Source: an uncultured Alphaproteobacteria bacterium (GTDB lineage: Bacteria > Pseudomonadota > Alphaproteobacteria > RF32 > CAG-239). From it: 64,000 nucleotides of DNA. Within the stretch, counting starts at the first letter, position 1; each line of letters begins with the position of its first letter. Below the pieces are notes generated by a model, which saw only the letters and a list, made by a program, of their open reading frames with translations, made no database searches and had not been told where the DNA came from. The DNA is taken from positions 83,928 through 147,927 of the forward strand of contig CAXHMA010000001.1 of the NCBI GenBank assembly GCA_964017825.1, in the 5' to 3' direction. Shown here one piece after another: positions 11,338-41,010 of the stretch. The translations under genes were made by a program, and so were the position numbers.

Positions 11338-11347
11338 CGGCGCATAA

Positions 11348-12037: not shown

Positions 12038-12040
12038 CCC

Positions 12041-13012: not shown

Positions 13013-13029
13013 CGCAGTGCCTTTATGGC

Positions 13030-14677: not shown

Positions 14678-14930
14678 CCTCTAAATATTATTAAAACAAT
14701 TTTTAGACTAACGTCTGAGACAAACGCTACACACAAAATAATTATTTGACAAGCTTTTTTTTAAACTTTTCAACGCAGCCTCCCTGTTTACACGGATAAT
14801 TTATTATATTTCAATACGTTAAGAATGACTAAAAAAATCGTATTTTTCCCCAAATTAACACTTTATTTCTAAAAAAACACGCACTATATATACCAATGAA
14901 TTAATCGAATTTATATTTAGAGGAACAAAA

Positions 14931-15872
14931 ATGCAAATAGGTATTATCGGAACGGGAATGGTCGGCAGTGCCATTGCCTATTCACTGGCCAGCGAAGGAA
15001 CTGCCGAAAAATTAATTTTAATTGACGCCAATAAAGAGCGCGCCATAGCCGAAGCCATGGATATTTCCCACGCGGCGCCTTTCACCTTCGGCGTTAAGGT
15101 TGTTGCCGGAGACTATAAAGATTTGAGCGAAGCCGGAATCATTATCATCACCGCCGGGGCCAACCAAAAGCCCGGCGAGACCCGCCTTGACCTTTTGGAA
15201 AAGAATGTCTCCATTTTCAAAAGCATAATCCCCGAAGTCGTCAAGCATGCGCCGAATGCGATTTTAATCATCGCCGCCAACCCGGTAGACATTATGACCG
15301 AAGTTACGCTGAAACTTTCCGGCTTCCCGAAAAACAGAGTCTTCGGCACCGGTACCGTTTTGGATTCGGCGCGCTTCCGCAGTATTTTGGGCCGCCATTT
15401 GGGCGTATCGCCGAAATCCATTCACGCCAACGTTATCGGTGAACACGGCGATTCCGAAGTTTTGCTTTGGTCCAGTGCCGTTGCCGGAACATCGTGCGTG
15501 GAAAAATTTGCCGAAGAATGCGACGTCGTTTTGGATAATGTGATTAAAGCCTCCATTGATAATGAAGTTCGCAACGCTGCTTATACGATTATCAAAGGCA
15601 AAGGCTCCACCTATTTCGGCATAGCTTCCGCCACACAATACATCTGCAATTCAATCATCAGCGACAAACACGCGATATTAACCGTCAGTTCGCACCATGA
15701 CGAAGGCATCGGCGGTTATGACAATATCTGCTATGCCATGCCCTCCATTGTCAGCAAAAACGGCGTAGAAAGAGCATTGTTGCCGTCTATGTGCGGCAGC
15801 GAACTTGACGCTTTGACCAAAAGCGCCGAAACACTTTCCGAATATACAAAAAAAGCGCTTGCGATGTTGTAA
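14931..15872 (+). CDS. ldh: L-lactate dehydrogenase (LDH/MDH family, Gln at substrate-specificity position).
   Basis: GxGxVG NAD fold; GANQKPGETRLDL loop (Q not R suggests lactate); IGEHGDS catalytic His. Confidence 0.75.
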   Translation: MQIGIIGTGMVGSAIAYSLASEGTAEKLILIDANKERAIAEAMDISHAAPFTFGVKVVAGDYKDLSEAGIIIITAGANQKPGETRLDLLEKNVSIFKSIIPEVVKHAPNAILIIAANPVDIMTEVTLKLSGFPKNRVFGTGTVLDSARFRSILGRHLGVSPKSIHANVIGEHGDSEVLLWSSAVAGTSCVEKFAEECDVVLDNVIKASIDNEVRNAAYTIIKGKGSTYFGIASATQYICNSIISDKHAILTVSSHHDEGIGGYDNICYAMPSIVSKNGVERALLPSMCGSELDALTKSAETLSEYTKKALAML

Positions 15873-15888
15873 GATTACAACCCTCATT

Positions 15889-15917
15889 AAAAAGCCCGAC
15901 ATTCTCTGCCGGGCTTT
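15889..15917. terminator. Bidirectional rho-independent terminator between ldh and HTH gene.
   Basis: AAAAGCCCGACATTCTCTGCCGGGCTTTT hairpin flanked by A/T runs. Confidence 0.6.
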
Positions 15918-15921
15918 TATA

Positions 15922-16197
15922 TTACTCCTCTTTCATATCTTCTAAACGCACCACAAGCCGCTTATTATAATATTTCAGTAACTCAGCTACGGCAAACCAG
16001 TTGAATTTGCGGCGCGCCATTTCCACCATTTCAATCTTATATGGCGGCACACCGATTTTTGCGCTCAACTCTTGCGATGACGCCCGCTTTTTCATCCGTT
16101 CGTTCAGCAAAAGCGTACCTATTTGGCGTTTGACATCATTACATAATATATCGCCGTTAAGGATATACTTTTTTTCTTCTTCTAATGTTTGAAACAT
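15922..16197 (-). CDS. Small XRE-type helix-turn-helix protein (91 aa), paralog of 40686..41009.
   Basis: HTH segment LSAKIGVPPYKIEMVE; AGGAG RBS; paralogous gene 25 kb away with the same upstream noncoding module. Confidence 0.55.
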   Translation of the reverse strand: MFQTLEEEKKYILNGDILCNDVKRQIGTLLLNERMKKRASSQELSAKIGVPPYKIEMVEMARRKFNWFAVAELLKYYNKRLVVRLEDMKEE

Positions 16198-16427
16198 GAT
16201 TTTTTACTCCTTGTTAAATTAAAACAAAAGGCGCTTAAAAGCGCCAGGGAGTTCACAAATCACAAAGCTATGACTCTCTTGGCCTTCAATATATAGCCAA
16301 GAGCTCCCTGACTTACATCAAGGAAAATGCTTTGAGAGCCTGTGACAGCCCTGACGGTGTCTCCACCGACAAAAGAAGTATAAAAGAGAATTTATAAAAG
16401 TAAAGTTAATTTTTTTGTTGTGGTATC
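16198..16427 (-). repeat. Rep2 copy A: ~225-bp conserved structured noncoding module upstream of HTH gene (about 90% identical to 41011..41235).
   Basis: Near-identical sequence at both loci; contains GC hairpin + T-run 20 nt before RBS, nested inverted repeats (CTCTTGGC...GCCAAGAG, CAGGGAGCTC...GAACTCCCTG). Confidence 0.7.
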
Positions 16428-16442
16428 GCGCCGTTTTTTTAG

Positions 16443-16560
16443 AGGAGAGAAATTTTGTGAGTGAGCCTGAAATGTCCGCCAAGGGAGGGAAGTGTACATA
16501 AAAGTACATGACCCGACCGAAGTGCGGCTTCCATCCACAAATTAGTTCACAATAATTTGA
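16443..16560 (+). repeat. Rep1 copy A (dispersed ~110-bp stem-loop repeat, core GTGTACATAAAAGTACATG, tail TTCCATCCACAAATTAGTTCACAA).
   Basis: Shares head module GAGAAATTTTG[C/T]GAGTGAGCCTGAAAT, core and tail with five other copies in the window. Confidence 0.75.
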
Positions 16561-16581
16561 GATAGACATCGATGGGTTCAA

Positions 16582-16632
16582 GGGCGCTTAAAATTTTAGT
16601 GTACACAATAGTACATGAATTTTAAGCGTCCC
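16582..16632 (-). terminator. Long perfect hairpin (14-bp stem) 3' of glycosyltransferase gene; loop carries GTACAC/GTACATG like Rep1 core.
   Basis: GGGCGCTTAAAATT ... AATTTTAAGCGTCCC inverted repeat. Confidence 0.4.
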
Positions 16633-16659
16633 GCAGAAACCGCGCTGGATGCTCAAATT

Positions 16660-17685
16660 TTATCCCTCTAAACCGTTATAGTACTTATACCACAACCTTT
16701 GTAGCATATAAAAGAACTCCGTCTTCGGTATGCTGATACCCAAAGGCTTTTTGGCGGATGCAAAATGCAAAATCGTCACGGGCGCAAAAACCTGCTCAAA
16801 GTTCTGCCAATTCCGCCCGTAAAACTCATTCATCGTCTTCAAATCAATATGCTCAAAGAAGAAATTAATCGCATTGGCCTCAAACGGCAGCAGCACCGCA
16901 TCATGGCCGACCACCACATTCAGCGCATCTTGATCCATATAAGTACGGAAATTGTTGTTGGTATAGTCTTCCAGCGCTTTAACCAGATGATCATCGCGGA
17001 TTTTCTTCAAGTTCATGAGCATCACGCCGGAATTGAAGTAATAGCCGCGTTCTTCCAGCCCCAGCTCAACAACGTGCATATTTTCAAAAAACCATGACGG
17101 GTCTTTAACCGCCGCCAGATATTTCCCCTCAATATCGGTTTTAAAGATATTGTTCAAATCATGCAAAACCAACACGTCCGAATCAATATAAAGCACCTTG
17201 TCAAGATTCGGCAAAACATCGGCGATATAATATTTCAACAGCGAGGTTTTGGAAACATGCGTATCGCGGATATAGAACAAATCAACTTCTTTCTGCGGCA
17301 AAACGGTTACGGTAACGTTTTCATCCGCCATTGCTTTCAGAGCTTCCGCATCCGCATCGGAAACACCCAAAGTCATAACATAAAAATTATATTTGGAAAG
17401 CGGGCATTTGGTTTGCTTCGCCGAATTTATCGCCACGCGCGTAAAATCTATATAATTCGTATCGGTAATCAAAACCGCATCAACCGTTCCGTCCACGCCG
17501 GTGCAGTCCTCCGGTGCTAAGGCCAAATCAAAATCATACGTCTGCGCCTGTTCGGCCGTTTCAAACTGCGCGCTGCCGTTTGCCGGCGCCGTTTCATCTA
17601 TATAATTTGCCCACAGCAGCAGCCCGACCACGATAACGGCCATAACATCCGCCACAATCACCCATTTCATGCCTTTGTCTTTCAT
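16660..17685 (-). CDS. Family 8 glycosyltransferase (LPS glucosyl/galactosyltransferase-like) with N-terminal membrane anchor.
   Basis: DxD motif LYIDSDVLV, GT8 blocks (NxGVMLMNL, HFxxxxKP). Confidence 0.75.
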   Translation of the reverse strand: MKDKGMKWVIVADVMAVIVVGLLLWANYIDETAPANGSAQFETAEQAQTYDFDLALAPEDCTGVDGTVDAVLITDTNYIDFTRVAINSAKQTKCPLSKYNFYVMTLGVSDADAEALKAMADENVTVTVLPQKEVDLFYIRDTHVSKTSLLKYYIADVLPNLDKVLYIDSDVLVLHDLNNIFKTDIEGKYLAAVKDPSWFFENMHVVELGLEERGYYFNSGVMLMNLKKIRDDHLVKALEDYTNNNFRTYMDQDALNVVVGHDAVLLPFEANAINFFFEHIDLKTMNEFYGRNWQNFEQVFAPVTILHFASAKKPLGISIPKTEFFYMLQRLWYKYYNGLEG

Positions 17686-17753
17686 TGTCGTCTCCTAAAA
17701 ATCAGCTTTTGCTCAGTATGAGCGCAAAGTGGTAAAAACCGCGTTAATAAAGA

Positions 17754-19367
17754 TTAAAAACGTTCTATGGATCGCTGATATCCCAATTTCAGATAAATTG
17801 ACTTTTTCCCGACAAAAAAATAAGGGCGCGCGGGAAAATTACTAAGTCCGAGAATAAGATCCGGCGGTTCCTCAAAATCGACTTTGGCGGCAAAGAATAT
17901 TGCGCTTTCTTTATCCTCTTGCGTCAACTGCTCGTTGCCCGACAATACATAAATGAAAGTATCCTTGATAAACATCGCGTCACCCCAAATCGGATTTTCC
18001 GCTTCATACAAAAATAAACCGGCAGAGAAAATATGATGCAAAAATTTGGAGTAGCCGTACAACTCTCTCAGTCTCTCCCTGTCTTCGCCATACACATATT
18101 CGTCTCCGGTAAATTTTTCCCTGCCGTAAAACCCGCCGTGCACAAACAGACGGTAATGCTGCCCCGGAACAAGCTCCGACATAAGCTCCGAACGCACCCT
18201 GTCTGCCGTGCGCTCATCCAGTTTGTCGCCCGAAACCCAGACTTTTTGAGCCGTCAAATCAGCTTTCGCATAGCTGAGCGTCAAAACCAAAGCCAAGGCA
18301 AAAGCGGCATTGCCGAGCCATTTTCGTCCGCCCGCAGAAGCCGTGGCAAAAAGTATAGCGCCGACATAGGGAACAGAAAAGAAATGAATACGATAAGTAT
18401 AAAAGAAATCTTTCGGTGACATAAACGCCATCGTAAACGAAACATATAAAAGTCCGACAATACCGAGCAAACCCATGACAAAGCGCCGCCGGCAATATGT
18501 CGCCCAAAGAGCCGCTGCGGCAAGCCCGCAAAGGCACCAGACGACAACGTCCGAACAATAAGGAAACCCGTCGGTCAACACCCGCAAGGGCTCATCCCAC
18601 CGCTCCCGAAACTTCACCCACATATCTTTAACGGGAAGCATCTGGATATTATACATTCCCCTTGATAACCACATTTTATAACGCAGATAGGCAATAGCTC
18701 CGCGATAGAGTAACCCTGCCGCCGCTATCCATCCGCCGGCTTTTACATAAGCAAAAATCGCTGCCCTGTCTGCTTTTCTGCCCTGCATCACGTCTGCCGA
18801 AAATTTCCCGAACACCAAAACCAGCGCCAGTTCAAACGAAGCCGCATATCCCCCCATACTGATAAACAAACAAAGGCACCCGCCGAACGCGTATAAAATT
18901 TTACCCTCTTCCGCACCCTTAAAAATCAACATCATCCCGACAACGCATAAAAGCGGCCAGAACAAAACGGATATAACCGAATGCACATACCAAATCTGCG
19001 TTAACAAATAAGGGTTCAAAACAATCAGAAGCGAATACAAAACAACCGGAATATAATCCTTCCGCACACCGTACCAACAGGCGGAAAGCACCGCCGCGGC
19101 ACTGAAAAACAAAAATCCGACAAGCGCCGAAAATATCGGCAAAAGCTGACCTTCCGTCAAAATAACGGGCAACACGAACTGTGTAAAACGCCCTTCCCAA
19201 AGTCCTTCGGTCATCTTAACGCCGTACCGCATATATTTATAATCGTGATTACCGACATAAAAGCTGCCGAGATAGAAAAGAAACACCGTTGTCAATATGC
19301 CGAAAACCAACCCCAGGCAGTTAAGCCAAAAGCCGTATTTCTCTCTCCAAGTCTTTTTTTGCGTCAT
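17754..19367 (-). CDS. Large polytopic membrane protein (537 aa), family unknown; paralog of split gene at 19460..21180.
   Basis: ~10 predicted TM segments plus C-terminal soluble domain; two paralogous ORFs align to its N- and C-halves. Confidence 0.6.
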   Translation of the reverse strand: MTQKKTWREKYGFWLNCLGLVFGILTTVFLFYLGSFYVGNHDYKYMRYGVKMTEGLWEGRFTQFVLPVILTEGQLLPIFSALVGFLFFSAAAVLSACWYGVRKDYIPVVLYSLLIVLNPYLLTQIWYVHSVISVLFWPLLCVVGMMLIFKGAEEGKILYAFGGCLCLFISMGGYAASFELALVLVFGKFSADVMQGRKADRAAIFAYVKAGGWIAAAGLLYRGAIAYLRYKMWLSRGMYNIQMLPVKDMWVKFRERWDEPLRVLTDGFPYCSDVVVWCLCGLAAAALWATYCRRRFVMGLLGIVGLLYVSFTMAFMSPKDFFYTYRIHFFSVPYVGAILFATASAGGRKWLGNAAFALALVLTLSYAKADLTAQKVWVSGDKLDERTADRVRSELMSELVPGQHYRLFVHGGFYGREKFTGDEYVYGEDRERLRELYGYSKFLHHIFSAGLFLYEAENPIWGDAMFIKDTFIYVLSGNEQLTQEDKESAIFFAAKVDFEEPPDLILGLSNFPARPYFFVGKKSIYLKLGYQRSIERF

Positions 19368-19459
19368 TAAAAACGTGCTCCTTTTTTACGGATATTTTAA
19401 TCTCTGGAACAAATGTAAAAACAAAGGTGTAAAAAGCAGGTTAATATCCGCATAATGTT

Positions 19460-21180
19460 TTAATAAAGATAGCGGTGAAGCTTGCTTTTCTGAACCAAAC
19501 CGTCCGAAAACCGGATAATAATGTCTTTTGTTCCCACAAAATAATACTTTCCCGCCGGAAAAACCGATAAAGTCTCAATTGCATTGTAAACGGCGGAAAC
19601 ATCTGCCGGAATTTCATACAATTTCTCACTTTCGGCATTTCTTTGCGCTGCCGACAAATGCTCGTTGTTGTTAATGTATATCATCCCGCCGGCATAGTAA
19701 TTGGCATCGCCCGCCACCGGATTCATTGCTTCTGTCAAAAAAAAGCCGTGCGAGAAAAATATCGGCAGGTAGAAAGGGTAATATCCGTATTCCCTGACAT
19801 AGTCCGTATATTCGGGAATAAATTTATTTTCGGCAAATTTCGCCTGCCCGTAAAGGTTTCCGACAACCGCCATTCTGTAACGCTGCCCGCGGGTGATTTC
19901 CGGCAGTACGTCTTTTTTAACCCGTTCCATAATTTTCGTGTCCTGCTGATTACCCAAATACCAGACTTTCTGCACCGCCAAGTCCGCCTGCACAAAATAA
20001 AACAGCAGCAGCAAAACCATAACACGGGCTGAATTGCGCACGCACAAACCGCCACGCAGTTCCGCAACGGCAAAAAACAATGCCGCAACATACGGAAAAG
20101 AAAAAGAATTTGTCCGATAATAATGAAAAACTTCTTTAACCGCAAACCATGAAGAAACACTCATGGCAAACCCTGTCCCCAAAATGGCAAAAACAAACCA
20201 CAACCGCTCTTTCCCGCTTCTCATCGCGGCAAAAGCCGACAGCAGCAAACCGCCCGCAAGCAAAGGACTGAAAGACGGACAATACGGCATCGGGGTAAAA
20301 AACGCCCGCCACGGTTCCGCAGCACGGGTCAGAATGCGCTTAAACACATCCTCTGCCGACAGCAGCTGAACATTATACATATCAAACACCAGCCCCTTTT
20401 GTTTCAAAAAAATTATCAGCGCGGCCAAACACAAAGCAGCAACCAAAACGGCAGCCGAAATCTTAAAATATAACATAAACAGCCGTTTCAAAGACATGTC
20501 CCTGTTTAAGACATCGAGCAAAAACCGTCCCGCCAAAACAGTCAGCACCAGCTGCAAAGACGGTGCATCTTAAAAACTATATCTTTTGCCCACCGCAAGC
20601 CGGGCCTTCCAACAATGAAAAAGGCAGTAAATAACATTAAGACTACATAGACCAGCGCAAAATAGGCGAAACAAACTTATGTCACGTTTACACACTCGAC
20701 AATCTCCGACGTATTGACCGGCTTATTTTTCTGAAACCCGTCATATAATAAAACTACCCCGGAAACCGCGAGCAAATGCCAACACCCGATAGACAGTATC
20801 GTATATGTATAATAGATTTGTGAAACAATATGCGGATTTAAAACAATCAGCAACGCAAATAACAGACCGCCTTTTTTATGTTCACCCCATCCGTACCATT
20901 TTGCCGTCAAAACCGCGGCGGCGGCGTAAAATGCAAAAGCCGAAAGCATATTGATAACCGGCAGAATTTGATTGCCGCTTACAAGCCACGGAAACAAAAA
21001 CTGCGTCAGACGCCCTTCCCAGACGCCCGAATTCAAAGACATACCGTAACGCAGATACAAATAATCATGATTGCCTGAAAAGAACGTAACAATGCAAAAA
21101 GAAAAAACCGCAGCTATGGCGCCCCATACCTGAAAAAAGGTTTTTAACCAAAAATAATGCTGCTTCAAAAAGTGTATCAT
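19460..21180 (-). pseudogene. Disrupted paralog of 17754..19367: N-terminal fragment ORF 20677..21180 and C-terminal fragment ORF 19460..20557 in different frames.
   Basis: 167-aa ORF matches residues ~1-150 and 365-aa ORF matches ~200-537 of the full-length paralog; frames differ, ~120-bp gap. Confidence 0.45.
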
Positions 21181-22505: not shown

Positions 22506-25139
22506 TTAAAAGGCGGTGTCGGTATCCCCAACCCATGCCAACTCATACATCTTGCGGATTTCTTCAATCAGCGGATAACGCGGGTTGGAACCGGTGCACT
22601 GGTCGTCAAACGCCAATGTCGGCAGCGTTTCCATAGCTTTCTTGAAGTCTTCCTCGGTGTATTCGTTGCGGATGGCAAACCATTCTTTGATAGACCCCGG
22701 GATGCCGATTTTCGTCTTCAGCTCTTTAATTGCCTCTACTAACGCATTAACTTTGTCGTCATCGGTCTTGCCCTTAAAGCCCATCGCAGCCGCAAATTCG
22801 GCATAAGCCGCTTTGGCGTGCGGGAACTTATATTGCGGGAAAGCACACTGCTTCGTCGGCTTGTCGGTTGCATTATAACGGATAACCTGACAAATTAACA
22901 ATGCATTGGCTACACCGTGCGGAATGTTAAAGTGCGAACCGAGTTTGTGCGCCATCGAATGGCAAACGCCCAAGAAAGCATTCGCAAATGCCATACCGGC
23001 AAGCGTTGCCGCCGCGTGAACTTTTTCGCGGGCGTATGCGTCCGCCGTCGCATAAGACTGCGGCAGATAGTCAAATACCAGCTTGCCCGCTTCCAAAGAC
23101 AATCCGCGCGTATATTCGGTCGCCATGGAAGATACATAAGATTCAAGCGCGTGCGTCAGAATATCAATACCCGAAGCCGAGCAGAGACCTTTCGGCATGG
23201 TCAGCACCAAATCACTGTCTACAATAGCCATGGAAGGTGTCAGCGCATAGTCGGCAATCGCATATTTCACGCCCTCACCGTCGTCGGTGATAATGGAGAA
23301 CGGCGTTACCTCAGAACCCGTACCCGATGTCGTCGGAATAGCAACGAGCATAGCCTTCTCGCCAAGCGGCGGAAATTCAAAAATACGTTTGCGGATGTCC
23401 ATAAAGCGCATGGCCAAATCTTCAAACTTCAATTCCGGATGTTCATACATCAGCCACAGAATTTTGGACGCGTCAATCGGCGACCCACCGCCCAAGGCGA
23501 TAATCACATCGGGCTCAAACGAACGCAGCGTCTCAATTGCTTTGTTGACGGTCGTCAAGTCAGGATCGGGATGAACATCGGAGAAGACTTTATACTGCAC
23601 GCCGATTTGTTCCAGCACATCGGTCACCTTACGCGTCATACCCAGGTCAAACAACGGCTTGTCGGTTACGATAAACGCTTTCTTTTTGCCTTTGAGTTCT
23701 TTCAAAGCCACACCCAAAGAACCGGGTTTGAAATAGATTTTCGGAGGAACTCTGAACCATAACATATTTTCCTCGCGCTTAGCCACACTTTTAATATTCA
23801 TCAGATGTTTTACTCCTACATTTTCACTAACCGAGTTGCCGCCCCACGAACCGCAGCCCAAAGTCAGAGACGGTTCCAGACGGAAGTTGTAAATATCGCC
23901 GATAGCACCCTGCGATGCCGGACAGTTAATCATCACACGCCCCGTAATCATGAGGTGCCCGTAATATTTAATGCGGTCGTCATTCATCGGGTTGGTGTAA
24001 AGGACGGACGTATGTCCTCTGCCGCCATGCGATACCAGAGACTTCGCCAAATCAGCACCGCTCTTGAAATCATCGGCTTTATACAGCGCCAATACCGGAG
24101 ATAATTTTTCCGCCGAAAACGGTTCTTCCGCCCCGACTTTTGTGCATTCGGCAATCAAAACTTTTGTCTCAGCGGGAACGGAAATTTTTGCCATTTCGGC
24201 AATCCTGTGCGCCGGCTGTCCGACGATTGCGGCGTTCAAATGCCCGTCAATCATAATCACTTTGCCGAGTTTTTCTTTTTCTTTGGCATTCAGGATATAG
24301 GCGCCGCGTTTGATAAATTCTGCCTTAACCGCGTCATATACGTCTTTGACGGCCGTTACCGACTGCTCGGAAGCGCAAATCATGCCGTTATCAAAAGTTT
24401 TGGACATCAAAATGGAAGAAACCGCCATTTCAATATCCGCCGTTTCGTCAATCAGCGCCGGCGTATTGCCCGCGCCCACGCCCAAAGCAGGCTTACCTGA
24501 GCTGTATGCCGATTTCACCATCCCCGGACCACCGGTTGCCAAGATAATATCAACATCAGGATGTTGCATCAAATATTGCGTACGCAAAATAGACGGCTCG
24601 TCAATCCAGCCGATAATGTCTTCCGGTGCACCGGCCTTCACCGCTTCTTCCAAAATCAAACGCGCCGTTTCCACAGTGCATTTCTTGGCGCGCGGGTGCG
24701 GCGAAAAGATAATGCCGTTGCGGGTCTTCAACGCAATCAAAGACTTGAAAATCGCCGTGGATGTCGGATTCGTCGTCGGAATAACGCCGGCAATCACCCC
24801 CAGCGGTTCCGCAATCTTAATCAGCCCGTTGGCTTTGTCTTCTTCCAACACGCCGCAAGTCTTCACGCATTTGAATTTGTTATAGATATATTCAGACGCA
24901 AAATGGTTTTTAATCACCTTGTCTTCCACCACGCCCATGCCGGTTTCCTCAACCGCCATTTTCGCCAGCGGAATTCTGAGAGAGCTTAATTTCAAAGCCA
25001 CTCTGCGAAAGATATGGTCAACCTGCTCTTCCGAATATTCCGCAAACTTTTTTTGCGCCGCGGCCACTTTTTTAACCAGCGCGTCAATATATGCCTTTTC
25101 CTGTTCCTCGGTTACCTGAACCTGATTTTCTTTTGCCAT
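22506..25139 (-). CDS. adhE: Bifunctional acetaldehyde-CoA/alcohol dehydrogenase.
   Basis: 877 aa; N-terminal ALDH domain (catalytic Cys region MICASEQS), C-terminal Fe-ADH domain (GGGSPxD, His-rich metal site). Confidence 0.95.
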   Translation of the reverse strand: MAKENQVQVTEEQEKAYIDALVKKVAAAQKKFAEYSEEQVDHIFRRVALKLSSLRIPLAKMAVEETGMGVVEDKVIKNHFASEYIYNKFKCVKTCGVLEEDKANGLIKIAEPLGVIAGVIPTTNPTSTAIFKSLIALKTRNGIIFSPHPRAKKCTVETARLILEEAVKAGAPEDIIGWIDEPSILRTQYLMQHPDVDIILATGGPGMVKSAYSSGKPALGVGAGNTPALIDETADIEMAVSSILMSKTFDNGMICASEQSVTAVKDVYDAVKAEFIKRGAYILNAKEKEKLGKVIMIDGHLNAAIVGQPAHRIAEMAKISVPAETKVLIAECTKVGAEEPFSAEKLSPVLALYKADDFKSGADLAKSLVSHGGRGHTSVLYTNPMNDDRIKYYGHLMITGRVMINCPASQGAIGDIYNFRLEPSLTLGCGSWGGNSVSENVGVKHLMNIKSVAKREENMLWFRVPPKIYFKPGSLGVALKELKGKKKAFIVTDKPLFDLGMTRKVTDVLEQIGVQYKVFSDVHPDPDLTTVNKAIETLRSFEPDVIIALGGGSPIDASKILWLMYEHPELKFEDLAMRFMDIRKRIFEFPPLGEKAMLVAIPTTSGTGSEVTPFSIITDDGEGVKYAIADYALTPSMAIVDSDLVLTMPKGLCSASGIDILTHALESYVSSMATEYTRGLSLEAGKLVFDYLPQSYATADAYAREKVHAAATLAGMAFANAFLGVCHSMAHKLGSHFNIPHGVANALLICQVIRYNATDKPTKQCAFPQYKFPHAKAAYAEFAAAMGFKGKTDDDKVNALVEAIKELKTKIGIPGSIKEWFAIRNEYTEEDFKKAMETLPTLAFDDQCTGSNPRYPLIEEIRKMYELAWVGDTDTAF

Positions 25140-25254: not shown

Positions 25255-25329
25255 TTATATTTTAAAATCAAGGGCATGGAAAATTGCATCCCGGCCAATC
25301 AACAAAACGATAAGGCATAATTTTTTCAT
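25255..25329 (-). pseudogene. Remnant 5' cassette (24 aa: MKKLCLIVLLIGRD...) of the secreted-paralog family, ATGA-overlapping the stop of 25326..26087.
   Basis: Nucleotide string AAGGCATAATTTTTTCAT identical to the starts of three upstream paralogs. Confidence 0.4.
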
Positions 25330-26087
25330 GGTTCCCTGTTTTCTCCGTATTTGGCCGCCGCTTCGTTTAAAAGGGTGTCTGCGGCATGTTCCAGCAACAC
25401 ATTGGTTTTGAATTTGACTGTATATTCTCTAAGCTGATATTCCGGATTCAGATATGAATAATACTTTTTTGTTTCATCTGCCATTCTGACGAAAGCTTCT
25501 GTTACCTCTGCTGCTTTATCAGGGTAAAATTGCGTTGCGGCCGTATCAATAATTTCATAAACACACCGCTCGTAACCATCGGCATATGCTCTTTCCGCCA
25601 CATGAATTGCCTTGATGTTGCCGTCATCATCTTTCAGTTCCGAACGATAGGGGACAAAATCGCCGCACTGTTCCAATTTTTGCCGCAGTGCATTAACTGC
25701 TTCTATTCCATATGGATGTTCGGCATCTAAATATTCTTTGACTTCGGTTCGCGAAAAATCAGCACATTGAACAATGTAACCAAGATTTCGGTATATTTCA
25801 GCCTTGTCAGTCGGTATGTAAATATAAGCGATATCCGTCTCCAAGCCGTTAATATATATGAGCCTTTCCTGTATTTTATCATCGGCAATCGCCTTGACCG
25901 AAGCCGGCGCTATTTTACGCGCTTTGTTATCGCCCTGACACGTCGGACAATAATGTATCACCTCTTTGGCATTCTGTAACAGTTTGACGGCGTTTTCAGC
26001 AATGTCTGCCGTATTGTAAACGCAGATATCGGCATGCGCCGTTATCGCAGCCAAACACAGCAAAACAATAAGGCATAATTTTTTCAT
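25326..26087 (-). CDS. Secreted Cys-containing hypothetical protein (253 aa) sharing only its signal peptide with neighbours.
   Basis: Signal peptide MKKLCLIVLLCLAAITAHA; ATG start. Confidence 0.6.
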   Translation of the reverse strand: MKKLCLIVLLCLAAITAHADICVYNTADIAENAVKLLQNAKEVIHYCPTCQGDNKARKIAPASVKAIADDKIQERLIYINGLETDIAYIYIPTDKAEIYRNLGYIVQCADFSRTEVKEYLDAEHPYGIEAVNALRQKLEQCGDFVPYRSELKDDDGNIKAIHVAERAYADGYERCVYEIIDTAATQFYPDKAAEVTEAFVRMADETKKYYSYLNPEYQLREYTVKFKTNVLLEHAADTLLNEAAAKYGENREP

Positions 26088-26090
26088 GAT

Positions 26091-27014
26091 TTACTCCTCA
26101 TTTAAATCACATTTGAGGCGGTTTTGTTTTTCAAAACAATCTTTATGTACGAGATATAAATCTTTTTTATTGAAATAGTCTATATAAAGAGCATAAAAAT
26201 CATTCGGGTTAAAAGTTATTTGATGAATCAATTTGTTACGGCGGTCTAAATTAAATTCAGTATAAGGCTTTCCGTCTTTGCCGATAATCACAGAACCGTC
26301 AGCTTTAAATTCAAACGAAGCCCTGCCGCATGTAAGCTTAGGATTATCTTTCAGCCGATAATAATTCTCCGGCAATGTGCTTCCTTCCTCATATGAATGC
26401 AGTTCAATAAATCCTTTCCCTAAATCCTCATAGCAGTTTAGTTCAACGACGTTAAACTCGGGAAAGACAACCTTATCTTCATCAGCCAATATCAGTTCGT
26501 AACTGGTTTCCTCCGGTATATCCGGCATTTTATAATCATAACGGCAGTAGCTTCGGTCAGCCCCTTCATAAGCGCATCCGCGCACAAAAATTTTGCCGTC
26601 TTTTATGCCGACGGAATCATATATGCCGTCAGCTTCTCGACCGAACGGGAATAAATTGCCTAAGTATTTTTTCCCTGCATACAGCTGTACGGCCAATTTA
26701 TAGCTATATGGATATGACTGCATAAACACTGGTGTAAATTTCATTTTATATTCAACACCGTCAATAACGCAGCTTTCTTCGCGCGGTATTGGTTTTGTTT
26801 GAGTTGTTGTGACGTTATATTCGTATAATCCGTGTTTTTGTGCTCTCTGTGCCCAATCCTTATCTTCCGGTTCGGCAAAAAAATCTTTCATATCCGTACG
26901 GAATTCTTTTACATTTGGCAGACAGCTTGTTTTGTATGTATATTCATAATAACTTGTCGCATGTGCCGTTATCGCAACCAGACACAGCAATATTAAAAGG
27001 CATAATTTTTTCAT
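26091..27014 (-). CDS. Secreted Cys-rich hypothetical protein, tandem paralog A (307 aa).
   Basis: ~70% aa identity to 27014..27949; signal peptide MKKLCLLILLCLVAITAHA; start ATG overlaps upstream stop (TGATG). Confidence 0.65.
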   Translation of the reverse strand: MKKLCLLILLCLVAITAHATSYYEYTYKTSCLPNVKEFRTDMKDFFAEPEDKDWAQRAQKHGLYEYNVTTTQTKPIPREESCVIDGVEYKMKFTPVFMQSYPYSYKLAVQLYAGKKYLGNLFPFGREADGIYDSVGIKDGKIFVRGCAYEGADRSYCRYDYKMPDIPEETSYELILADEDKVVFPEFNVVELNCYEDLGKGFIELHSYEEGSTLPENYYRLKDNPKLTCGRASFEFKADGSVIIGKDGKPYTEFNLDRRNKLIHQITFNPNDFYALYIDYFNKKDLYLVHKDCFEKQNRLKCDLNEE

Positions 27015-27949
27015 CAATTTATCTCCTTAAACATATTGCAGCCGGAGCATTCTTCCTTTTCAGAGCAAAATCTGCTGTTCGAATACAGTTCCTTTTTATC
27101 AAAATATTTTATATAAAAACCCGCAAGCAAACTCGCATCAAAAGCTATTTGATAAATCTGTTTGTTACAGAGTGCCGGATTAAAGTCAGCATACGTTTTT
27201 TCATCTTTGCTGACGATGACCGAACCGTCAGCTTTAAATTTTATGGAAGCCCTGCCGCATGTAAGCTTAGGATTATCTTTCAATCGATAATAATTTTCCG
27301 GCAACTCGCTTTCTTCCTTATAAGAACGCAGCTCAACAAATCCTTTTTCCAAGTCTTCATAGCAGTTCAATTCAACGATGTTAAATTCCGGAAAGACAAC
27401 CTTGTTTTTATCAGCCAATATCAATTCATAACTGGTTTCTTCAGGCATATCCAACTCTTTATAATCATAAAGGCAATAACTTATATTGGTTGCCTCGTAA
27501 ATACAACCTCGCACAAAAATTTTGCCGTCTTTTATGCCGACGGAATCGTAGCCGTCATCATAATCCGCACCAAACGGAAAAAGGATGCCCCTATATTTTT
27601 TTCCGGCGTAAAGCTGCACAGCCGTCTCATGACGGCCATAATATTCCCGAACAAGTATAGGAATAAATTTCATTCTATATTCAACACCGTCTATGGTGCA
27701 GCTTTCTTCCCTCGGCAGCGGCTTTTCTTCATATGTATCCACATTGAGCCTGTATAATCCGTGTTTTTCAGCTTTTTGTAACCAATCTGCATCATCCCGA
27801 ACATCAAAAAAAACTTTTCTGTCTGCACGGAATTCTTTTACATTCGGCAAACAGCTTGTTTTATATGTATATTCATAATAACTTGTCGCATGTGCCTTTT
27901 TGGCAAACGCAGCCAAACACAGCAATATTAAAAGGCATAATTTTTTCAT
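27014..27949 (-). CDS. Secreted Cys-rich hypothetical protein, tandem paralog B (311 aa).
   Basis: Paralog of 26091..27014; same signal-peptide cassette. Confidence 0.65.
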   Translation of the reverse strand: MKKLCLLILLCLAAFAKKAHATSYYEYTYKTSCLPNVKEFRADRKVFFDVRDDADWLQKAEKHGLYRLNVDTYEEKPLPREESCTIDGVEYRMKFIPILVREYYGRHETAVQLYAGKKYRGILFPFGADYDDGYDSVGIKDGKIFVRGCIYEATNISYCLYDYKELDMPEETSYELILADKNKVVFPEFNIVELNCYEDLEKGFVELRSYKEESELPENYYRLKDNPKLTCGRASIKFKADGSVIVSKDEKTYADFNPALCNKQIYQIAFDASLLAGFYIKYFDKKELYSNSRFCSEKEECSGCNMFKEIN

Positions 27950-27952
27950 GAT

Positions 27953-28687
27953 TTACTCTTGTTCTAAATTAAAAACTTTTGCCGTTTCGTTCATGTACCA
28001 TGCAACCACTTTTTTAATTTCAGTATAACGGAATGCGGCAATATAATCCTCAACGACGGTGCCGTTGTCATAATTTTCCGTCGGGGTATATATATCCCGC
28101 AGCAGAGTTTCATATGCAGTCAAATAATTATCAAAATTTTTTTTATATTTATCTGCGTTATCGAGATGGCAGTTTTTAAACAATGAAGACAGTGTTTGCA
28201 AATAACATTCTTCCGCTTCTGTAAGATTACTGTTTTGTACATTGCCGTATAGTTCTTCGCATTGCTGATATCGTTTCTGCGTCTGCATAAATTTATCACG
28301 CATGGAAATATATATTTTATCAGAACCTATTTCTTTCAAAAGACGATTATCATCCGTTTTGCAACCGATTATCAGTCCTAAATTTTGATATGTTCCGGAT
28401 ATTTCAGAATAAACAAAGAAATCCGTTGCCGCATAACTGTTGTCTTTTATGCTGAAACGTCCGAACTCCAAACTGTTTTCATCTGTTGTGAAATCAATAT
28501 CGGCAAAAGAAATCTCCTGCGGTTTAGTGTTTTCAAACAGCAGAATTTCTTTTGCGGATGATAAAACATTTTCTGCTTTTTCCATTTCCTCAACGCTGAG
28601 GGCATCGCATCCGCAATAATCAGCCCGAGCCATGTATATAGGAAACAGCATTAAAACAGAGATAAAGATTAAAATTTTATTTTTCAT
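27953..28687 (-). CDS. Secreted Cys-containing hypothetical protein (244 aa).
   Basis: Signal peptide MKNKILIFISVLMLFPIYMARA; operonic with neighbours. Confidence 0.55.
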   Translation of the reverse strand: MKNKILIFISVLMLFPIYMARADYCGCDALSVEEMEKAENVLSSAKEILLFENTKPQEISFADIDFTTDENSLEFGRFSIKDNSYAATDFFVYSEISGTYQNLGLIIGCKTDDNRLLKEIGSDKIYISMRDKFMQTQKRYQQCEELYGNVQNSNLTEAEECYLQTLSSLFKNCHLDNADKYKKNFDNYLTAYETLLRDIYTPTENYDNGTVVEDYIAAFRYTEIKKVVAWYMNETAKVFNLEQE

Positions 28688-28776
28688 TTTCGCGCCCCGG
28701 ATAAATATTCCTCTTTAAGTTTTCCGAACATTTGTTCAAATTTCTCAGCACCATAATATTGCTGTTTTACCCTGCT

Positions 28777-29406
28777 TTATAAAGCAAAATCTGTGCAGTT
28801 TTTAAAATCTTCCATTGTTCCCAATGCGGCGTTTTCATAACCGTTATATGTGTAACAGTGGATTTTGTCTTTTGTTTCACGGGTACAATTTAAAGGCAAA
28901 ACTCCTTGCCGTTTAGCGCCATTCTTGTCAAAATATTCCGCAATGCAGCGGCAATCATGACACTTTTGCAAGTCTATCCGGCTGTATATTTCTGAACCTT
29001 TACATGATTTGGATATATAAACATTGTTACTTGCCGAGAAAATAAGTTCGTCATTACCGCCAATGTAACATGACGCTTTATCAAAATTATCTTTATTATT
29101 TTCCTCGCAAAAGAAAGAAACGGTTTCCTGCGCGTGGTTGGCAGTATCCTTAACAGTGCCGGAACAGCCGTGTGAGCCGCAATCCGCAAAACGAAAAGGC
29201 TCTGCCTTGTCAATCCACAGAGGGACTTCAATTTGATATGTGTCTTTTGACCCCCGATATATATATTCAACACTATCCTCATCTTCGGCAAGTAACTCAC
29301 CTTTGCTGACGGCAAATTCACCGCACGGCCAATCTTGCGGAAGAGCATTTACTGTATAACAAAACAATATACTACATACAAAAATCATATAACCTTTTTT
29401 CAACAT
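28777..29406 (-). CDS. Secreted Cys-rich small protein (209 aa), candidate cognate immunity-like partner of upstream SLT protein.
   Basis: Signal peptide; 14 Cys; 5' end overlaps 3' end of SLT-domain gene by 35 nt. Confidence 0.55.
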   Translation of the reverse strand: MLKKGYMIFVCSILFCYTVNALPQDWPCGEFAVSKGELLAEDEDSVEYIYRGSKDTYQIEVPLWIDKAEPFRFADCGSHGCSGTVKDTANHAQETVSFFCEENNKDNFDKASCYIGGNDELIFSASNNVYISKSCKGSEIYSRIDLQKCHDCRCIAEYFDKNGAKRQGVLPLNCTRETKDKIHCYTYNGYENAALGTMEDFKNCTDFAL

Positions 29407-30523
29407 TGTATAAATGTCCTCTTAAATTTTTCTCTATTTTATCATAGGGTAAACGGTATACTCCATTTTTATCTTTTTCAAGTGATTTAAAATAGGTACG
29501 GACAAAACCAAGCCCTTCGCGATGTCCGGCAGCCAGTAATCCTGACAGAGTAATATCAAAATCAACCTCTTGTTTGTTCAGAACAGCCTTTACATGCATT
29601 GTCGTTTGTGGCAAAAGGTTCATTCGTTTCAAGCGAATATAATTTAAATTCATCATATCTTTTATCGCTTTTTCTTGGACTTCGTGTGCATTATAAAAAT
29701 CTTGTGCGCTGTTTATACCGTCTTTTCCTAACCAATTTCCCTGCTTGTCAACATATCCCAAATCAATAAGAATCCCCTTACGCATTTGATATTTTCCCAG
29801 TGCCCCTATTCCTCCTCCTTCCGAATTAAAGGCATTATAATTGTTACTTGATTCTTTTTGAGCTAATAAGTTATAAAAATCATTACTCAAATAGTTGTCA
29901 ACGAATCTTAAAGATTCTTTTTGCTCTCCTTTTATCTCCATTGAAGCCAGCTTTTGTTTGGTTTCCGCGATGTGTTTTTGTATGGCTTTGTCCGTTTCAA
30001 AAAGACGGCGTTGTTCTTTTTCCTGCGCTGCGCGTTCTTTCCATTCCTTTTCCAAAGATATGCGGCCTTCTTCACTCATTCGGTGCCACACTTCGGGGGT
30101 GAAGAGCGGCGGGAAGGGAGAGGATGTCAAGCCTTTTTCTTCTTCCGATATTTTTATAAGTTCCGCGTCATCATTCTGATTTGAAAACGGATCAGGCTGT
30201 CCGGAAACAGCACGCAGGTCATTTGTTTGCAGCTGTTGTTTTCGTTCTGCCATATCAGCTCGAAACGCCTCAGTTGTGTTGCGTTGCATGAGAGATTCCT
30301 GCCTTTCAAGCTCACGGGCTGTCGCACGTTCTTTCAATACCTCACCGGCGTAACAGCGTACTGAGCAGTAATCCTGATATTCCTCGTCGGGAATTTGGTA
30401 TTCAATGTCCCAAGGGTTTTCGCCGAAACGGTCGTAATATTCATTGAGTTTTTTCTTGGCGATGGTTTTCGGATTTGGGGTCCCGAATAACGTTTTTTCC
30501 AATTCATCAGCAAAGCTGTGCAT
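29372..30523 (-). CDS. Signal-peptide-less protein with charged coiled-coil-like N-region and C-terminal lytic transglycosylase (SLT family 1-like) domain.
   Basis: GAGGAG RBS before ATG 30523 (the track ORF starts at an upstream TTG); C-terminal QKESSNNYNAFNSEGGGIGALGKYQM ... IKDMMNLNYIRL ... LLAAGHREG follows ES / GLMQ / AYL / AYNAG motif order. Confidence 0.55.
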   Translation of the reverse strand: MHSFADELEKTLFGTPNPKTIAKKKLNEYYDRFGENPWDIEYQIPDEEYQDYCSVRCYAGEVLKERATARELERQESLMQRNTTEAFRADMAERKQQLQTNDLRAVSGQPDPFSNQNDDAELIKISEEEKGLTSSPFPPLFTPEVWHRMSEEGRISLEKEWKERAAQEKEQRRLFETDKAIQKHIAETKQKLASMEIKGEQKESLRFVDNYLSNDFYNLLAQKESSNNYNAFNSEGGGIGALGKYQMRKGILIDLGYVDKQGNWLGKDGINSAQDFYNAHEVQEKAIKDMMNLNYIRLKRMNLLPQTTMHVKAVLNKQEVDFDITLSGLLAAGHREGLGFVRTYFKSLEKDKNGVYRLPYDKIEKNLRGHLYNVEKRLYDFCM

Positions 30524-30669
30524 ATCGTTCTCCTCTATAAAAAAAGACTTCAAACCGCACCGTCCGAAGTCCTGAATTAAAAATCGTATATTATAATAAA
30601 TATACTTTTGGGAGAATGTCAATACTTTCAGAGACAGAGATGTAAATATTTTTTATGGAAAAAATATGG

Positions 30670-30893
30670 CAGAAATTTTGCGAAGCAGCCGCGGGAGCCT
30701 TACCCGCGTTACGCCCCGTTACAGATGGGAAATTTTGCGAAATAACCGCGGGAACCCTGCCCCATTACAGGCGGAAAATTTTGGTAGTGAGCCTGAAATA
30801 TCCGCCAAAGGGCAGGAGTGTACATAAAGGTACATGACTGCCCTGCAGAGCGGCTTCCATTTCAGAACTCAATACCAAAATTTACCCCTGTAA
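30670..30893 (+). repeat. Rep1 copy C (three head modules + core) abutting pyk stop codon.
   Basis: GAAATTTTGCGAAGCAGCCGCGGG, GGGAAATTTTGCGAAATAACCGCGGG, GTGAGCCTGAAATATCCGCC, core GTGTACATAAAGGTACATG, tail GGCTTCCATTTC...AATTTACCCCTGTAA. Confidence 0.75.
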
Positions 30894-32315
30894 TTAAGCT
30901 TTGACGATGTGAAGAACGTTGGTAATCCCCGCCCTTCCGAACGGATAGCCTGCCGTAACGACAATATGCTCACCCGGTTGCGCAAGGCCGGAGACACGCG
31001 CAAACCCGCGCGACACCGTTTCAATGTTATCAAAACTTTCAAAAACTTTCTTGTCAATAAAGGTCTTCACACCCCAAACAAGGTTCAGACGCCGCGCGAT
31101 TTCCTCGCTCGGGTTGATAGACATAACCGGCAAAACGGGACGTTCCTGCGCCATGAGCAATGTTGTTGCGCCGGAAACCGAAAACGTCGCAATGCAGGCA
31201 ACTTTGTTCATCGTGCGCACAACCGTACTTGCCGCATGTGTGATGGCGTGCGATTCATCGCTGTAACATGCCGGCTCGCAGAAACGGTTAACATTTTCAA
31301 AATAACGCGGATCAGCTTCCACATTTTCAATCACGCCGCGCATGGTCCTGACCGTTTCAACAGGATAATTGCCTGCAGCCGTTTCCGCCGAAAGCATAAC
31401 GACATCGCAGCCGTCATAAACCGCCGTCGCCACGTCCGAAACCTCGGCTCTTGTCGGTATCGGCGCCGAAATCATCGATTCGAGCATCTGCGTCGCCACA
31501 ATCACCGGCTTGCCGTACAGACGGCATTTCGCTTCAATGCGTTTTTGCAAAACCGGCACCGTCACAATCGGACATTCCACGCCCAAATCGCCGCGCGCCA
31601 CCATAACCATATCCGAAGCTTTAACAATCGCGTCCAGCTCGTCCAAAACCTGCGGCTTTTCAAGCTTGGAAATAATCCACGCTTTTTTACCGATAATCTT
31701 ACGCGCTTCCCTGATGTCCGAAGCCCGCTGCACAAACGACAGGCAGACGCAGTCCACACCGAGCTTTAAGGCAAAATCCAAATCGCTCAAATCTTTCGGC
31801 GTCAGCGGTGAAATATTCAGCGAAGAGTTCGGCAGATTCACGCCCTTATGTCCGGAAATAATACCGCCGACCTCGACTTCGGTCTCCGCAGAATCTTTAT
31901 TGCATTTTAAAACCTTTAAGATAATGTTGCCGTCATTGACCAACAGCGTGTCGCCGGCTTTTAAAGCTTCAAAAATCTCTTTATGAGGCAGGGTAACACG
32001 AGTCTCATCACCGAGCTCATCCTTCATATCCAACGTAAACTTCTGCCCTTTTTGCAGCAGGACTTTTCCCTCTTTAAACGTACCGATTCTCAGTTTCGGC
32101 CCCTGCAAATCCGCCACAATTGTCGTATGCGCGTTTTTCTTTTTTGCGATTCTGCGCACCGTATCATATGTTTCTTTGTGTTCTTCCTGCGTACCGTGGC
32201 TGAAATTCAGACGAAACCCGTCCACGCCTGCTTCAATAAGGGCTTCAATTTTTTCTTCGCTGTTTGAAGCGGGTCCCAATGTTGCTAAAATCTTTGTACG
32301 CGTACTGATCGGCAT
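30894..32315 (-). CDS. pyk: Pyruvate kinase.
   Basis: 473 aa; PK barrel and C-domain motifs (MVARGDLGVE, TQMLESM). Confidence 0.95.
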   Translation of the reverse strand: MPISTRTKILATLGPASNSEEKIEALIEAGVDGFRLNFSHGTQEEHKETYDTVRRIAKKKNAHTTIVADLQGPKLRIGTFKEGKVLLQKGQKFTLDMKDELGDETRVTLPHKEIFEALKAGDTLLVNDGNIILKVLKCNKDSAETEVEVGGIISGHKGVNLPNSSLNISPLTPKDLSDLDFALKLGVDCVCLSFVQRASDIREARKIIGKKAWIISKLEKPQVLDELDAIVKASDMVMVARGDLGVECPIVTVPVLQKRIEAKCRLYGKPVIVATQMLESMISAPIPTRAEVSDVATAVYDGCDVVMLSAETAAGNYPVETVRTMRGVIENVEADPRYFENVNRFCEPACYSDESHAITHAASTVVRTMNKVACIATFSVSGATTLLMAQERPVLPVMSINPSEEIARRLNLVWGVKTFIDKKVFESFDNIETVSRGFARVSGLAQPGEHIVVTAGYPFGRAGITNVLHIVKA

Positions 32316-40685: not shown

Positions 40686-41009
40686 TTACTCAACAGCTTC
40701 GGTACTTGTCTCCGCTGGCGGCTCACTGCCGTATTTCAAACCCAGCGTCGGCGCATTCTCTAAACGAAGAGCCAGCGTCTTACCGTAAAAATCCAGCAAT
40801 ATCTCCACGGCTCCCCAGTGTGGCTTTTCTTTGGCGAGTTCCACCTCCTCAATCGTCCGTTCCGCCAGCCCTGTCTTGTCGCTGACCAACGTCAACCGCA
40901 GCCGACGCCGTTGCCGCTCTGCAAACAACGCCTGCCCGACCAGCTGACGCATATGCCGACAGCAAATCTCGCCGTTGCGCATAAAGTTACTAAATTCCTC
41001 ACTATTCAT
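40686..41009 (-). CDS. Small XRE-type helix-turn-helix protein (107 aa), paralog of 15922..16197.
   Basis: HTH LVSDKTGLAERTIEEVE; same upstream Rep2 module. Confidence 0.55.
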   Translation of the reverse strand: MNSEEFSNFMRNGEICCRHMRQLVGQALFAERQRRRLRLTLVSDKTGLAERTIEEVELAKEKPHWGAVEILLDFYGKTLALRLENAPTLGLKYGSEPPAETSTEAVE

Positions 41010-41010
41010 G

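Follow-up and report, generated by a model that had tools for sequence, protein, structure and literature searches.

Organization of the island and proposed function

The stretch of DNA here analyzed, hereafter the window, comprises 64,000 nucleotides (nt) from an uncultured Alphaproteobacteria bacterium (contig CAXHMA010000001.1 of assembly GCA_964017825.1). Between adhE (22506-25139) and the pyruvate kinase gene pyk (30894-32315) it holds an island, at 25255-30893, that is probably one allele of a polymorphic peptidoglycan-glycosidase toxin locus of uncultured gut Alphaproteobacteria, with a coupled periplasmic immunity gene and orphan immunity genes. Its coding content consists of one 383-amino-acid (aa) protein without signal peptide, five proteins with signal peptides and a 24-aa remnant, all of them encoded on the minus strand. 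With a guanine plus cytosine (GC) content of 38.9%, against 46.2% across the remaining window, the island is compositionally distinct from its surroundings and foreign-looking.

As here proposed, the 383-aa protein would be a modular toxin in which ~85 N-terminal aa serve for trafficking or recognition and a variable helical linker joins them to a peptidoglycan glycosidase at the C-terminus. Synthesized in the cytoplasm and devoid of a signal peptide, it cannot reach the wall of its own producer via Sec, and it would be harmful only upon reaching the periplasm from outside. The next gene, A, would be translationally coupled to the toxin gene, and its product, exported to the periplasm, may bind and block the catalytic cleft, thereby protecting its producer and kin cells. 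The two C genes, C311 and C308, and perhaps also B244 and B253, would be immunity genes kept without their toxin, guarding against GH24-like, and possibly GH108, toxins of close relatives at the same site. New cassettes would enter by recombination, with breakpoints inside the toxin gene after its N-terminal region and at the signal-peptide and junction repeats.

Catalytic domain of the SLT-like protein

The first gene of the island (29372-30523; ATG start, 7 nt after GGAG) encodes the 383-aa protein, hereafter the SLT-like protein. Its N-terminus is not hydrophobic (maximal Kyte-Doolittle value of 0.05 in an 11-residue window), no transmembrane (TM)-like stretch appears anywhere in the protein, and neither a signal peptide nor a lipobox is found, in agreement with the original prediction made on this DNA, which had described a product without signal peptide. 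The charged N-terminal region, there put at ~250 aa, measures ~205 aa instead. It is formed by the module here termed type 1 (codons 1-85, 30269..30523) and by a charged helical linker, partly disordered (codons 86-205, 29909..30268), whose length and sequence vary among homologues. A longer open reading frame (ORF) with a TTG start (416) was considered for this gene and is unsupported by the N-termini of the homologues.

The catalytic domain (codons 206-383 plus stop, 29372..29908) is modelled by AF2 from 13 homologues with pLDDT >90 over residues 206-383, and adopts a lysozyme-like alpha-helical fold for which lytic transglycosylases rank top among the structural matches. The putative catalytic residue E224, together with S225, closes helix 214-225, and this Glu-Ser pair is invariant across homologues. 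The G-x-x-Q motif (G243-K-Y-Q246) is also invariant, both in the set of 13 homologues and in one of 10, while H334 and G337 are nearly so. Thus, the lysozyme-like nature formerly claimed for this domain is borne out by its fold, and the lytic-transglycosylase motif order stands for these positions, the NYIRL segment included in that claim not being conserved.

Fold, Glu-Ser pair at the helix end and G-x-x-Q motif are those of family-1 lytic transglycosylases and phage tail lysozymes (MltE, MltC, Slt70, phiKZ gp144, gp5-type). Unlike family-1 lytic transglycosylases (GH23, PF01464), the SLT-like protein is recognized by none of the Pfam and NCBIfam models for SLT, Lysozyme or transglycosylase, even at E<=1, and sequence searches of the PDB with the protein and with its profile gave zero matches; the protein is, moreover, not Sec-exported, lipid-anchored or fused to a tail spike. 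In PHROGs, the sole match is with phrog_27932, annotated as 'baseplate hub subunit and tail lysozyme', and covers residues 215-344 (E 1.8e-11). Altogether, the domain is predicted to be a peptidoglycan glycosidase, either a lytic transglycosylase or a muramidase, two activities that sequence alone cannot separate.

Association of the SLT-like domain with protein A

Gene A (28777-29406) encodes a beta-rich, predicted secreted protein of 209 aa with 14 Cys, candidate cognate immunity or inhibitor of the toxin, and overlaps the SLT-like gene by exactly 35 nt, coordinates and signal peptide both agreeing with what had been read there before. Its signal peptide ends in a conserved AxA, the mature protein starts with LPQDWPC, and 12 Cys remain in the mature form of the window protein.

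Among 21 non-redundant gut loci, tblastn and ORF maps place a homologue of A immediately behind the SLT-like gene in 18. This linkage is independent of the N-terminus carried by the SLT-like protein, be it of type 1, 2 or 3 or short. An overlap of 11-44 nt between the A gene and the toxin gene is usual, and some loci have A in duplicate. In the alignment of the 18 sequences, ten Cys never vary, nor does a CG.SGC.G motif. These relatives were recovered by tblastn on the fetched loci; a word-indexed search with A returned A alone. The linkage supports A as the cognate partner of the SLT-like domain, the role that the original prediction had given it.

Divergent SLT-like subfamilies (those of L005, L023 and the soil loci; related loci are here numbered with the letter L) have other secreted proteins downstream in place of A, and in the soil set the downstream partners are conserved Cys-containing proteins of 176-217 aa. 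Two loci of distant soil Alphaproteobacteria (L031 and L032, ~10480-14070) show the SLT-like gene followed by arrays of paralogous 306-327-aa secreted proteins unlike A, which indicates that the layout of a toxin plus an array recurs with entirely different partner families.

Other roles were considered for A. A spanin or holin was discarded on account of its cleavable signal peptide and of the lack of a TM segment or coiled coil. A lipoprotein was likewise discarded, the lipobox being inconsistent among homologues and the AxA site before LPQDWPC conserved.

N-terminal modules and their exchange among toxin domains

The type 1 module follows the pattern MxSxxDE..FG..NPK..AKKKLNE.YDRFGE...EY.DY...EVL.ER, has no signal peptide, and is modelled by AF2 with pLDDT >90 for residues 20-80. 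A full HMMER scan with residues 1-105 found it in just 9 proteins among 1.84 billion cluster representatives. Residues 1-71 of the window protein share 44% identity over 71 aa (E 7e-10) with the N-terminus of a 346-aa GH108 protein (PF05838, E 1.9e-22) that sits in the pyk-adhE island of a related genome (L001). The module also heads four proteins (P0015, P0016, P0020, P0021) with C-termini of the GH24/T4-lysozyme/pesticin-like kind, an assignment that draws on weak Pfam matches and a visible E-x8-D-x5-T motif. In metagenomes of JGI, the N-terminal modules add two loci only, both of them copies of the known GH108 pair. The type 1 module is thus common to three lysozyme types (SLT-like, GH108, and GH24-like), a hallmark of polymorphic toxins, and the polymorphic effector/immunity layout formerly proposed for the island is upheld by it.

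Two further, unrelated N-termini behave similarly. Type 2 (MD.Y.KY.SPFGY..IDSYGV.H.GF.TRDE.EYQ.ARQQREN) heads SLT-like proteins in several loci and also carries SAA-like and Tlde1 domains (PF10908, E 2.5e-10 for the latter); in L033 it forms a cassette array in which an SLT fragment with A is followed by two SAA-like proteins, a Tlde1 protein, and then two paralogous TM proteins. Type 3 heads three neighboring proteins of L018, namely a GH108 protein, an SLT-like protein with its A, and one with an unknown Gly/Ala-rich domain, the latter followed by a 116-aa TM protein. None of the three types matches a Pfam or PHROG family, MIX, FIX, PAAR and Rhs being included in Pfam.

The two serum-amyloid-A-like proteins of L033 (11145-11630 and 12120-12518; PF00277, E 1e-13 to 3e-14) stand behind type 2 N-terminal fragments, and their SAA-like domain may be an undescribed toxin domain. 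In an SLT-like protein of L010 (8265-9452), the type 1 module is tandemly duplicated, residues 1-84 and ~94-175 being nearly identical, which speaks directly for recombination of the module as one unit.

Polymorphism at the pyk site and the B and C families

A one-genome-per-species scan yielded 28 loci of the SLT-like family, nearly all from uncultured Alphaproteobacteria of deer, reindeer and human guts, and a more distant set comes from soil Alphaproteobacteria. GapR, GcrA, LptD, SurA and LolA, encoded in the flanks, fit a diderm alphaproteobacterium. Close relatives with Pyk 86-92% and AdhE 97% identical to those of the window differ in island contents. The window site reads SLT-A-B-C-C-B, while in L001 a GH108 gene with a gene for a 153-aa protein, an SLT-like gene with A, a C-like gene, an A-like gene and sugar-modifying genes are found. 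In L081 pyk is followed by a GH24-like toxin gene, and in L086 by a GH24-like toxin gene and three C-family genes. The adhE end of L080 shows a GH24-like toxin gene, a gene for a 232-aa protein, a C gene, an A::B fusion and then adhE, whereas in L008 and L010 the arrangement SLT-A-A', inverted, lies at the pyk 3' end. The pyk-adhE island of L001 also contains, at 14673-17792, two RgpF-type rhamnosyltransferase genes and an acetyltransferase gene, so that this hotspot also gathers surface-polysaccharide genes.

GC content changes inside the toxin gene itself, from a host-like 46.0% over codons 1-205 to 33.9% in the catalytic part, with A, B244 and C at 35-39%. Such a drop is expected if C-terminal toxin-plus-immunity cassettes swap behind a resident 5' module. 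Together, the GC break, the junction and signal-peptide repeats and the A::B fusion are signs of cassette recombination.

All five downstream proteins display a K-rich n-region, an h-region score of 2.5-3.6, and an AxA-type cleavage site, and they sort into three families: A alone, the pair C311/C308 (66% identical), and the pair B244/B253 (26% identical, E 0.002). The earlier description of five secreted Cys-rich proteins is correct for their predicted secretion and, with regard to Cys, for A and C; mature C proteins contain 8-10 Cys, while the B proteins hold a modest 5-6. Likewise, the signal-peptide cassette said to be identical in three of them and in the remnant is indeed shared by four copies, its full identity spanning the first 18 nt only (ATGAAAAAATTATGCCTT); over 41-62 nt the copies show 68-87% identity. 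This MKKLCL cassette is common to different partner families, and the secreted proteins of L080 all begin with it as those of the window do.

C311 (27014-27949), with 10 Cys in its mature form, is a candidate orphan immunity against GH24-like toxins, and its paralogue C308 (26091-27014; 307 aa counted from ATG) has an identical gene call in a second assembly. C311 is 38-56% identical to the C-family genes behind GH24-like toxins in L086 and L080, the C gene of L080 itself being 56-61% identical to those of the window. C-family proteins directly follow a GH24-like toxin with a type 1 module in L086, and occur also in L080. Since the window holds two C genes and no GH24-like toxin, the best reading of both is that of orphan immunities directed at toxin alleles that circulate at this site. 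The GH108 toxin, in turn, has a 153-aa secreted protein encoded directly downstream in three loci. The putative immunity gene thus follows the type of toxin domain and not the N-terminus: A goes with SLT, the 153-aa protein with GH108, and C with GH24-like domains.

For the B family, the relationship is fainter. B244 (27953-28687) is a secreted sequence ORFan whose search against 5.8 billion proteins gave a self-match alone, and B253 (25326-26087), also secreted and furnished with the MKKLCL cassette, is its distant paralogue. Over its C-terminal 85 aa, B244 shares 33% identity with the C-terminal half of the A::B fusion of L080, and hhalign tentatively relates B to small helical secreted proteins, including the family that partners GH108, with 58% probability (E 1e-4). 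B244 might then be a further orphan immunity, weakly so. The diversified orphan partners of the original prediction are therefore sustained by family C, which follows a GH24-like toxin elsewhere, and weakly by family B.

These observations also bear on whether the island might be something more ordinary, either an autolytic, housekeeping enzyme of wall remodelling with its periplasmic regulators, or an insertion that has lost its function and is decaying. Lytic transglycosylases belong to the ordinary enzymes of the wall, some of them being controlled by periplasmic inhibitors such as Ivy, and the truncated 24-codon remnant shows some decay. Nonetheless, an enzyme with neither signal peptide nor lipobox, from an extremely rare and patchy family, at a compositionally foreign locus that varies among close relatives, makes such an explanation very improbable. 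The tight overlap with A is conserved, and none of the six ORFs is disrupted; they are 100% identical in the second assembly (GCA_965648045.1), where the island runs from inside the first gene, at the contig start, through B253. A conserved housekeeping operon, which would have refuted the original prediction, is, in particular, at odds with relatives that carry different cassettes at the pyk site although their flanking proteins are 86-97% identical.

Phage context and delivery route

The nearest relatives of the catalytic domain outside its own small family are phage proteins. The domain occurs in 43 IMG/VR loci, mostly as a C-terminal or internal domain of gp5/VgrG-like spike, hub and tail proteins of 650-1560 aa, and its best structural match in BFVD is also a gp5/VgrG-like phage protein (E 1.3e-5). 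Furthermore, 5 of the 21 related loci lie among phage structural genes. In L036 a major head protein (E 3e-90), a tail collar fiber and an 817-aa tail protein precede SLT and A, and phage genes in common with it are found in L012 and L014. In L011 two TM proteins, then SLT and A, are followed by a T7 gp11-like tail tubular protein (phrog_394, E 4e-38), while the surroundings of L018 include a tail fiber, a BppU_N-like protein, a holin-like protein and a GH108 endolysin. These five loci indicate that the cassettes are at least sometimes carried by prophages.

The SLT-like protein could accordingly be regarded as a lysin, either virion-associated or for lysis, derived from podovirus-like prophages of which the window island would be a detached remnant. 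A, B and C would then be periplasmic inhibitors that block the lysins of related phages upon entry, that is, agents of superinfection exclusion or anti-phage defense and not of interbacterial killing. Apart from the phage kinship of the domain and of the five loci, this explanation is favored by the partners of the type 1 module, all of them peptidoglycan glycosidases, as in modular phage lysins. On the contrary, N-termini of types 1 and 2 have zero matches in IMG/VR and are absent from PHROGs, the A family appears in one viral contig only, and no phage gene lies within 10-25 kb in the window or in the majority of the other loci. The absence of types 1 and 2 from viral collections and the many phage-free loci argue against a simple virion component. 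L018 has a separate holin and endolysin of its own, as many as three or four cassettes may share one locus, among them non-glycosidase domains with TM proteins behind them, and an intact, promoter-bearing toxin gene would be purposeless without a virion. A phage lysin is thus considered unlikely, albeit the main rival of the toxin reading. When compared with a phage lysis cassette, the window island has no TM-only ORF, and a TM pair precedes SLT and A in L011 alone.

Regarding export, no machinery, adaptor, holin or lysis gene is found in the island or within ~25 kb on each side, as judged from precomputed Pfam annotations, in which neighbors are housekeeping only (LptD, SurA, KsgA, a permease, GapR, FabF, YceG, PolA, PBP, FtsH and PTS among them). 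The annotated parts of the window contain neither an integrase nor a secretion-system gene, and to this extent the original statement on the lack of the latter is right. When ORFs of ~35 loci were clustered, A was the sole recurrent neighbor family, and the conserved neighbors of the soil loci, checked for a secretion system, are housekeeping only (FAD oxidase, DUF924 and a hydrolase). A flagellar, VirB1-like type IV secretion system (T4SS) or other specialized lytic transglycosylase was discarded, no such genes being nearby.

The toxin might also be cargo of a known secretion system whose genes lie elsewhere in the genome, a system of type VI (T6SS) or, less likely, a killing T4SS or an extracellular contractile injection system (eCIS). 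The toxin and immunity logic would then be the same, and the island an orphan effector-immunity island. Glycosidase effectors that act in the periplasm and are paired with periplasmic immunities belong to the standard repertoire of T6SS, the Tlde1 domain found on the type 2 module is known from a T6SS effector, and orphan effector-immunity islands far from the secretion apparatus are common. This possibility seems nevertheless a rather slim one: the Pfam annotations of the loci examined contain no vgrG, hcp, PAAR, adaptor or Tss gene, no neighbor other than A recurs, and the N-terminal modules match none of the marker families mentioned above.

The preferred reading, that of a polymorphic toxin locus with periplasmic immunity, must be weighed against several of these points and some others. 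To the missing export genes and the five phage-embedded relatives is added the great rarity of the SLT-like family, for which 13 clusters match among 5.8 billion proteins. A general toxin family should, moreover, have a broader range of domains than the glycosidases found behind the type 1 module, a restriction that also fits modular phage lysins. Searches of Pfam, NCBIfam, PHROGs and PADLOC relate A, B and C to no immunity or lysozyme-inhibitor family already known, and PADLOC gave no usable match for any of the six proteins; the single-sequence model of A, with pLDDT 34, was discarded; and the link of B to a toxin is weak. Toxicity itself, inhibition by A and the steps of export and import are parts of the scheme that we infer.

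Within this toxin reading, export would seem most likely to occur through phage-derived particles or lysis-linked release and delivery, or else by bacteriocin-like uptake on the model of pesticin. On visual inspection, the N-termini of types 1-3 show no TonB-box-like motif, and the helical, hairpin-like linker of the AF2 model is compatible with a receptor-binding domain, a feature that is not diagnostic. As a tentative suggestion, rather doubtful at present, the ~85-aa modules, of at least three unrelated types, may be trafficking domains of an undescribed Gram-negative route for periplasm-acting toxins, candidates for which are loading and release by phage-derived particles and receptor-mediated uptake unrelated to colicins.

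Relationship with known systems

A close parallel in architecture is the pair pesticin/Pim of Yersinia pestis, a colicin-like lysozyme bacteriocin and a periplasmic immunity protein specific for its lysozyme-like activity domain (PMC3390615). Pesticin and the SLT-like protein are both signal-less proteins of ~360 aa, with an N-terminal delivery part and a C-terminal muramidase of the phage-lysozyme-like kind, the two parts being predicted in the window protein, and some alleles of the type 1 module even carry a pesticin/GH24-like domain. In the window, on the contrary, the activity domain is GH23/SLT-like and not GH24, there is no visible TonB-box-like N-terminus and no plasmid or receptor context, and the candidate immunity gene is co-directional, overlapping and Cys-rich, with an array of further partners behind it.

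Glycoside-hydrolase effectors of T6SS (Tge/Tgi such as Tse3-Tsi3, VgrG3-TsiV3, and the pesticin-domain pair TssI2/TsiI2, PMC9620997) similarly combine signal-less cytoplasmic synthesis, a peptidoglycan glycosidase acting in the periplasm of the target (here predicted), a Sec-exported immunity encoded directly downstream, and orphan immunities. They differ from the loci here examined, which have no T6SS gene or T6SS-type N-terminal marker and whose N-terminal modules and immunity-like families are new.

Prophage-encoded polymorphic toxins, the MuF family and Bxa (PMC5576092, PMC11699363), are also found in gut bacteria and share with these loci a conserved N-terminal module, exchangeable C-terminal toxins followed each by small immunity ORFs, and, in some cases, a location inside prophage structural regions. 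Nonetheless, the modules here described are not MuF, their hosts are Alphaproteobacteria, the toxins would act on the wall or periplasm with secreted partners, and most loci, including the window, lie outside prophages.

The toxin and immunity principle is already known, while the N-terminal modules, the SLT-like subfamily, the A, B and C families and the host group are new. To our knowledge, nothing is known on how uncultured gut Alphaproteobacteria of this kind compete, and the locus offers a concrete candidate for antagonism among them, with three classes of cell-wall glycosidase on one chassis. If the modules do define a new route, they would add to the short list of ways by which proteins enter the periplasm of a neighbor, and on such a route the secreted Cys-rich arrays would be new inhibitor folds for lysozymes and lytic transglycosylases. 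Should A and C inhibit, new inhibitor families would be at hand for lytic transglycosylases and lysozymes, with their cognate enzymes defined, and the resulting inhibitor-enzyme pairs would be useful as reagents and for studies on the evolution of specificity. The phage-embedded relatives raise, in addition, the prospect of module exchange between interbacterial toxins and phage entry lysins, and of 'immunity' doubling as phage defense.

Other features of the island and the window

Upstream of the toxin gene, a promoter-like site (30593..30622, minus strand; TTGACA-18-TATTAT, 11/12 matches, a consensus match only) lies ~70 nt before its start, and a hairpin with a T-run (30544..30573, minus strand) stands in the presumed 5' leader, directly before the GGAG ribosome-binding site. 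Its folding is not significant (z = -1.5) and it matches no Rfam family. As a terminator-like hairpin between the predicted promoter and the toxin ribosome-binding site, it could be an attenuator. In the intergenic region between pyk and the toxin gene, two 34-nt direct repeats (30672-30705 and 30729-30762, GAAATTTTGCGAAnnnnCCGCGGGAnCC...), 82% identical and 57 nt apart, adjoin the predicted promoter on its upstream side and belong to a ~2.5-copy repeat recognized by eye, possibly an operator or the scar of a recombination.

At the other end of the island, the 24-codon remnant of a further cassette (25255-25329, MKKLCLIVLLIGRDAIFHALDFKI*) overlaps the B253 stop in an ATGA at its start, and its region includes a copy of repeat family D4 at 25300-25340. 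A tRNA scan and a search of Rfam gave no match on the island or the whole window.

Elsewhere in the window, two adjacent genes for paralogous polytopic membrane proteins of ~537-539 aa, which match no Pfam family, lie at 17754-21180 on the minus strand beside a GT8 glycosyltransferase gene. The second of them is split in the window into ORFs 19460-20557 and 20677-21180, due to a segment (20569-20709) that is ~141 nt long here and ~40 nt in the otherwise 100% identical GCA_965648045.1; this difference reflects either a variable segment or a difference between assemblies. Finally, an intergenic element of ~225 nt, without Rfam match, occurs twice in the window, at 16195-16414 and 41007-41232, with 91% identity between its copies.

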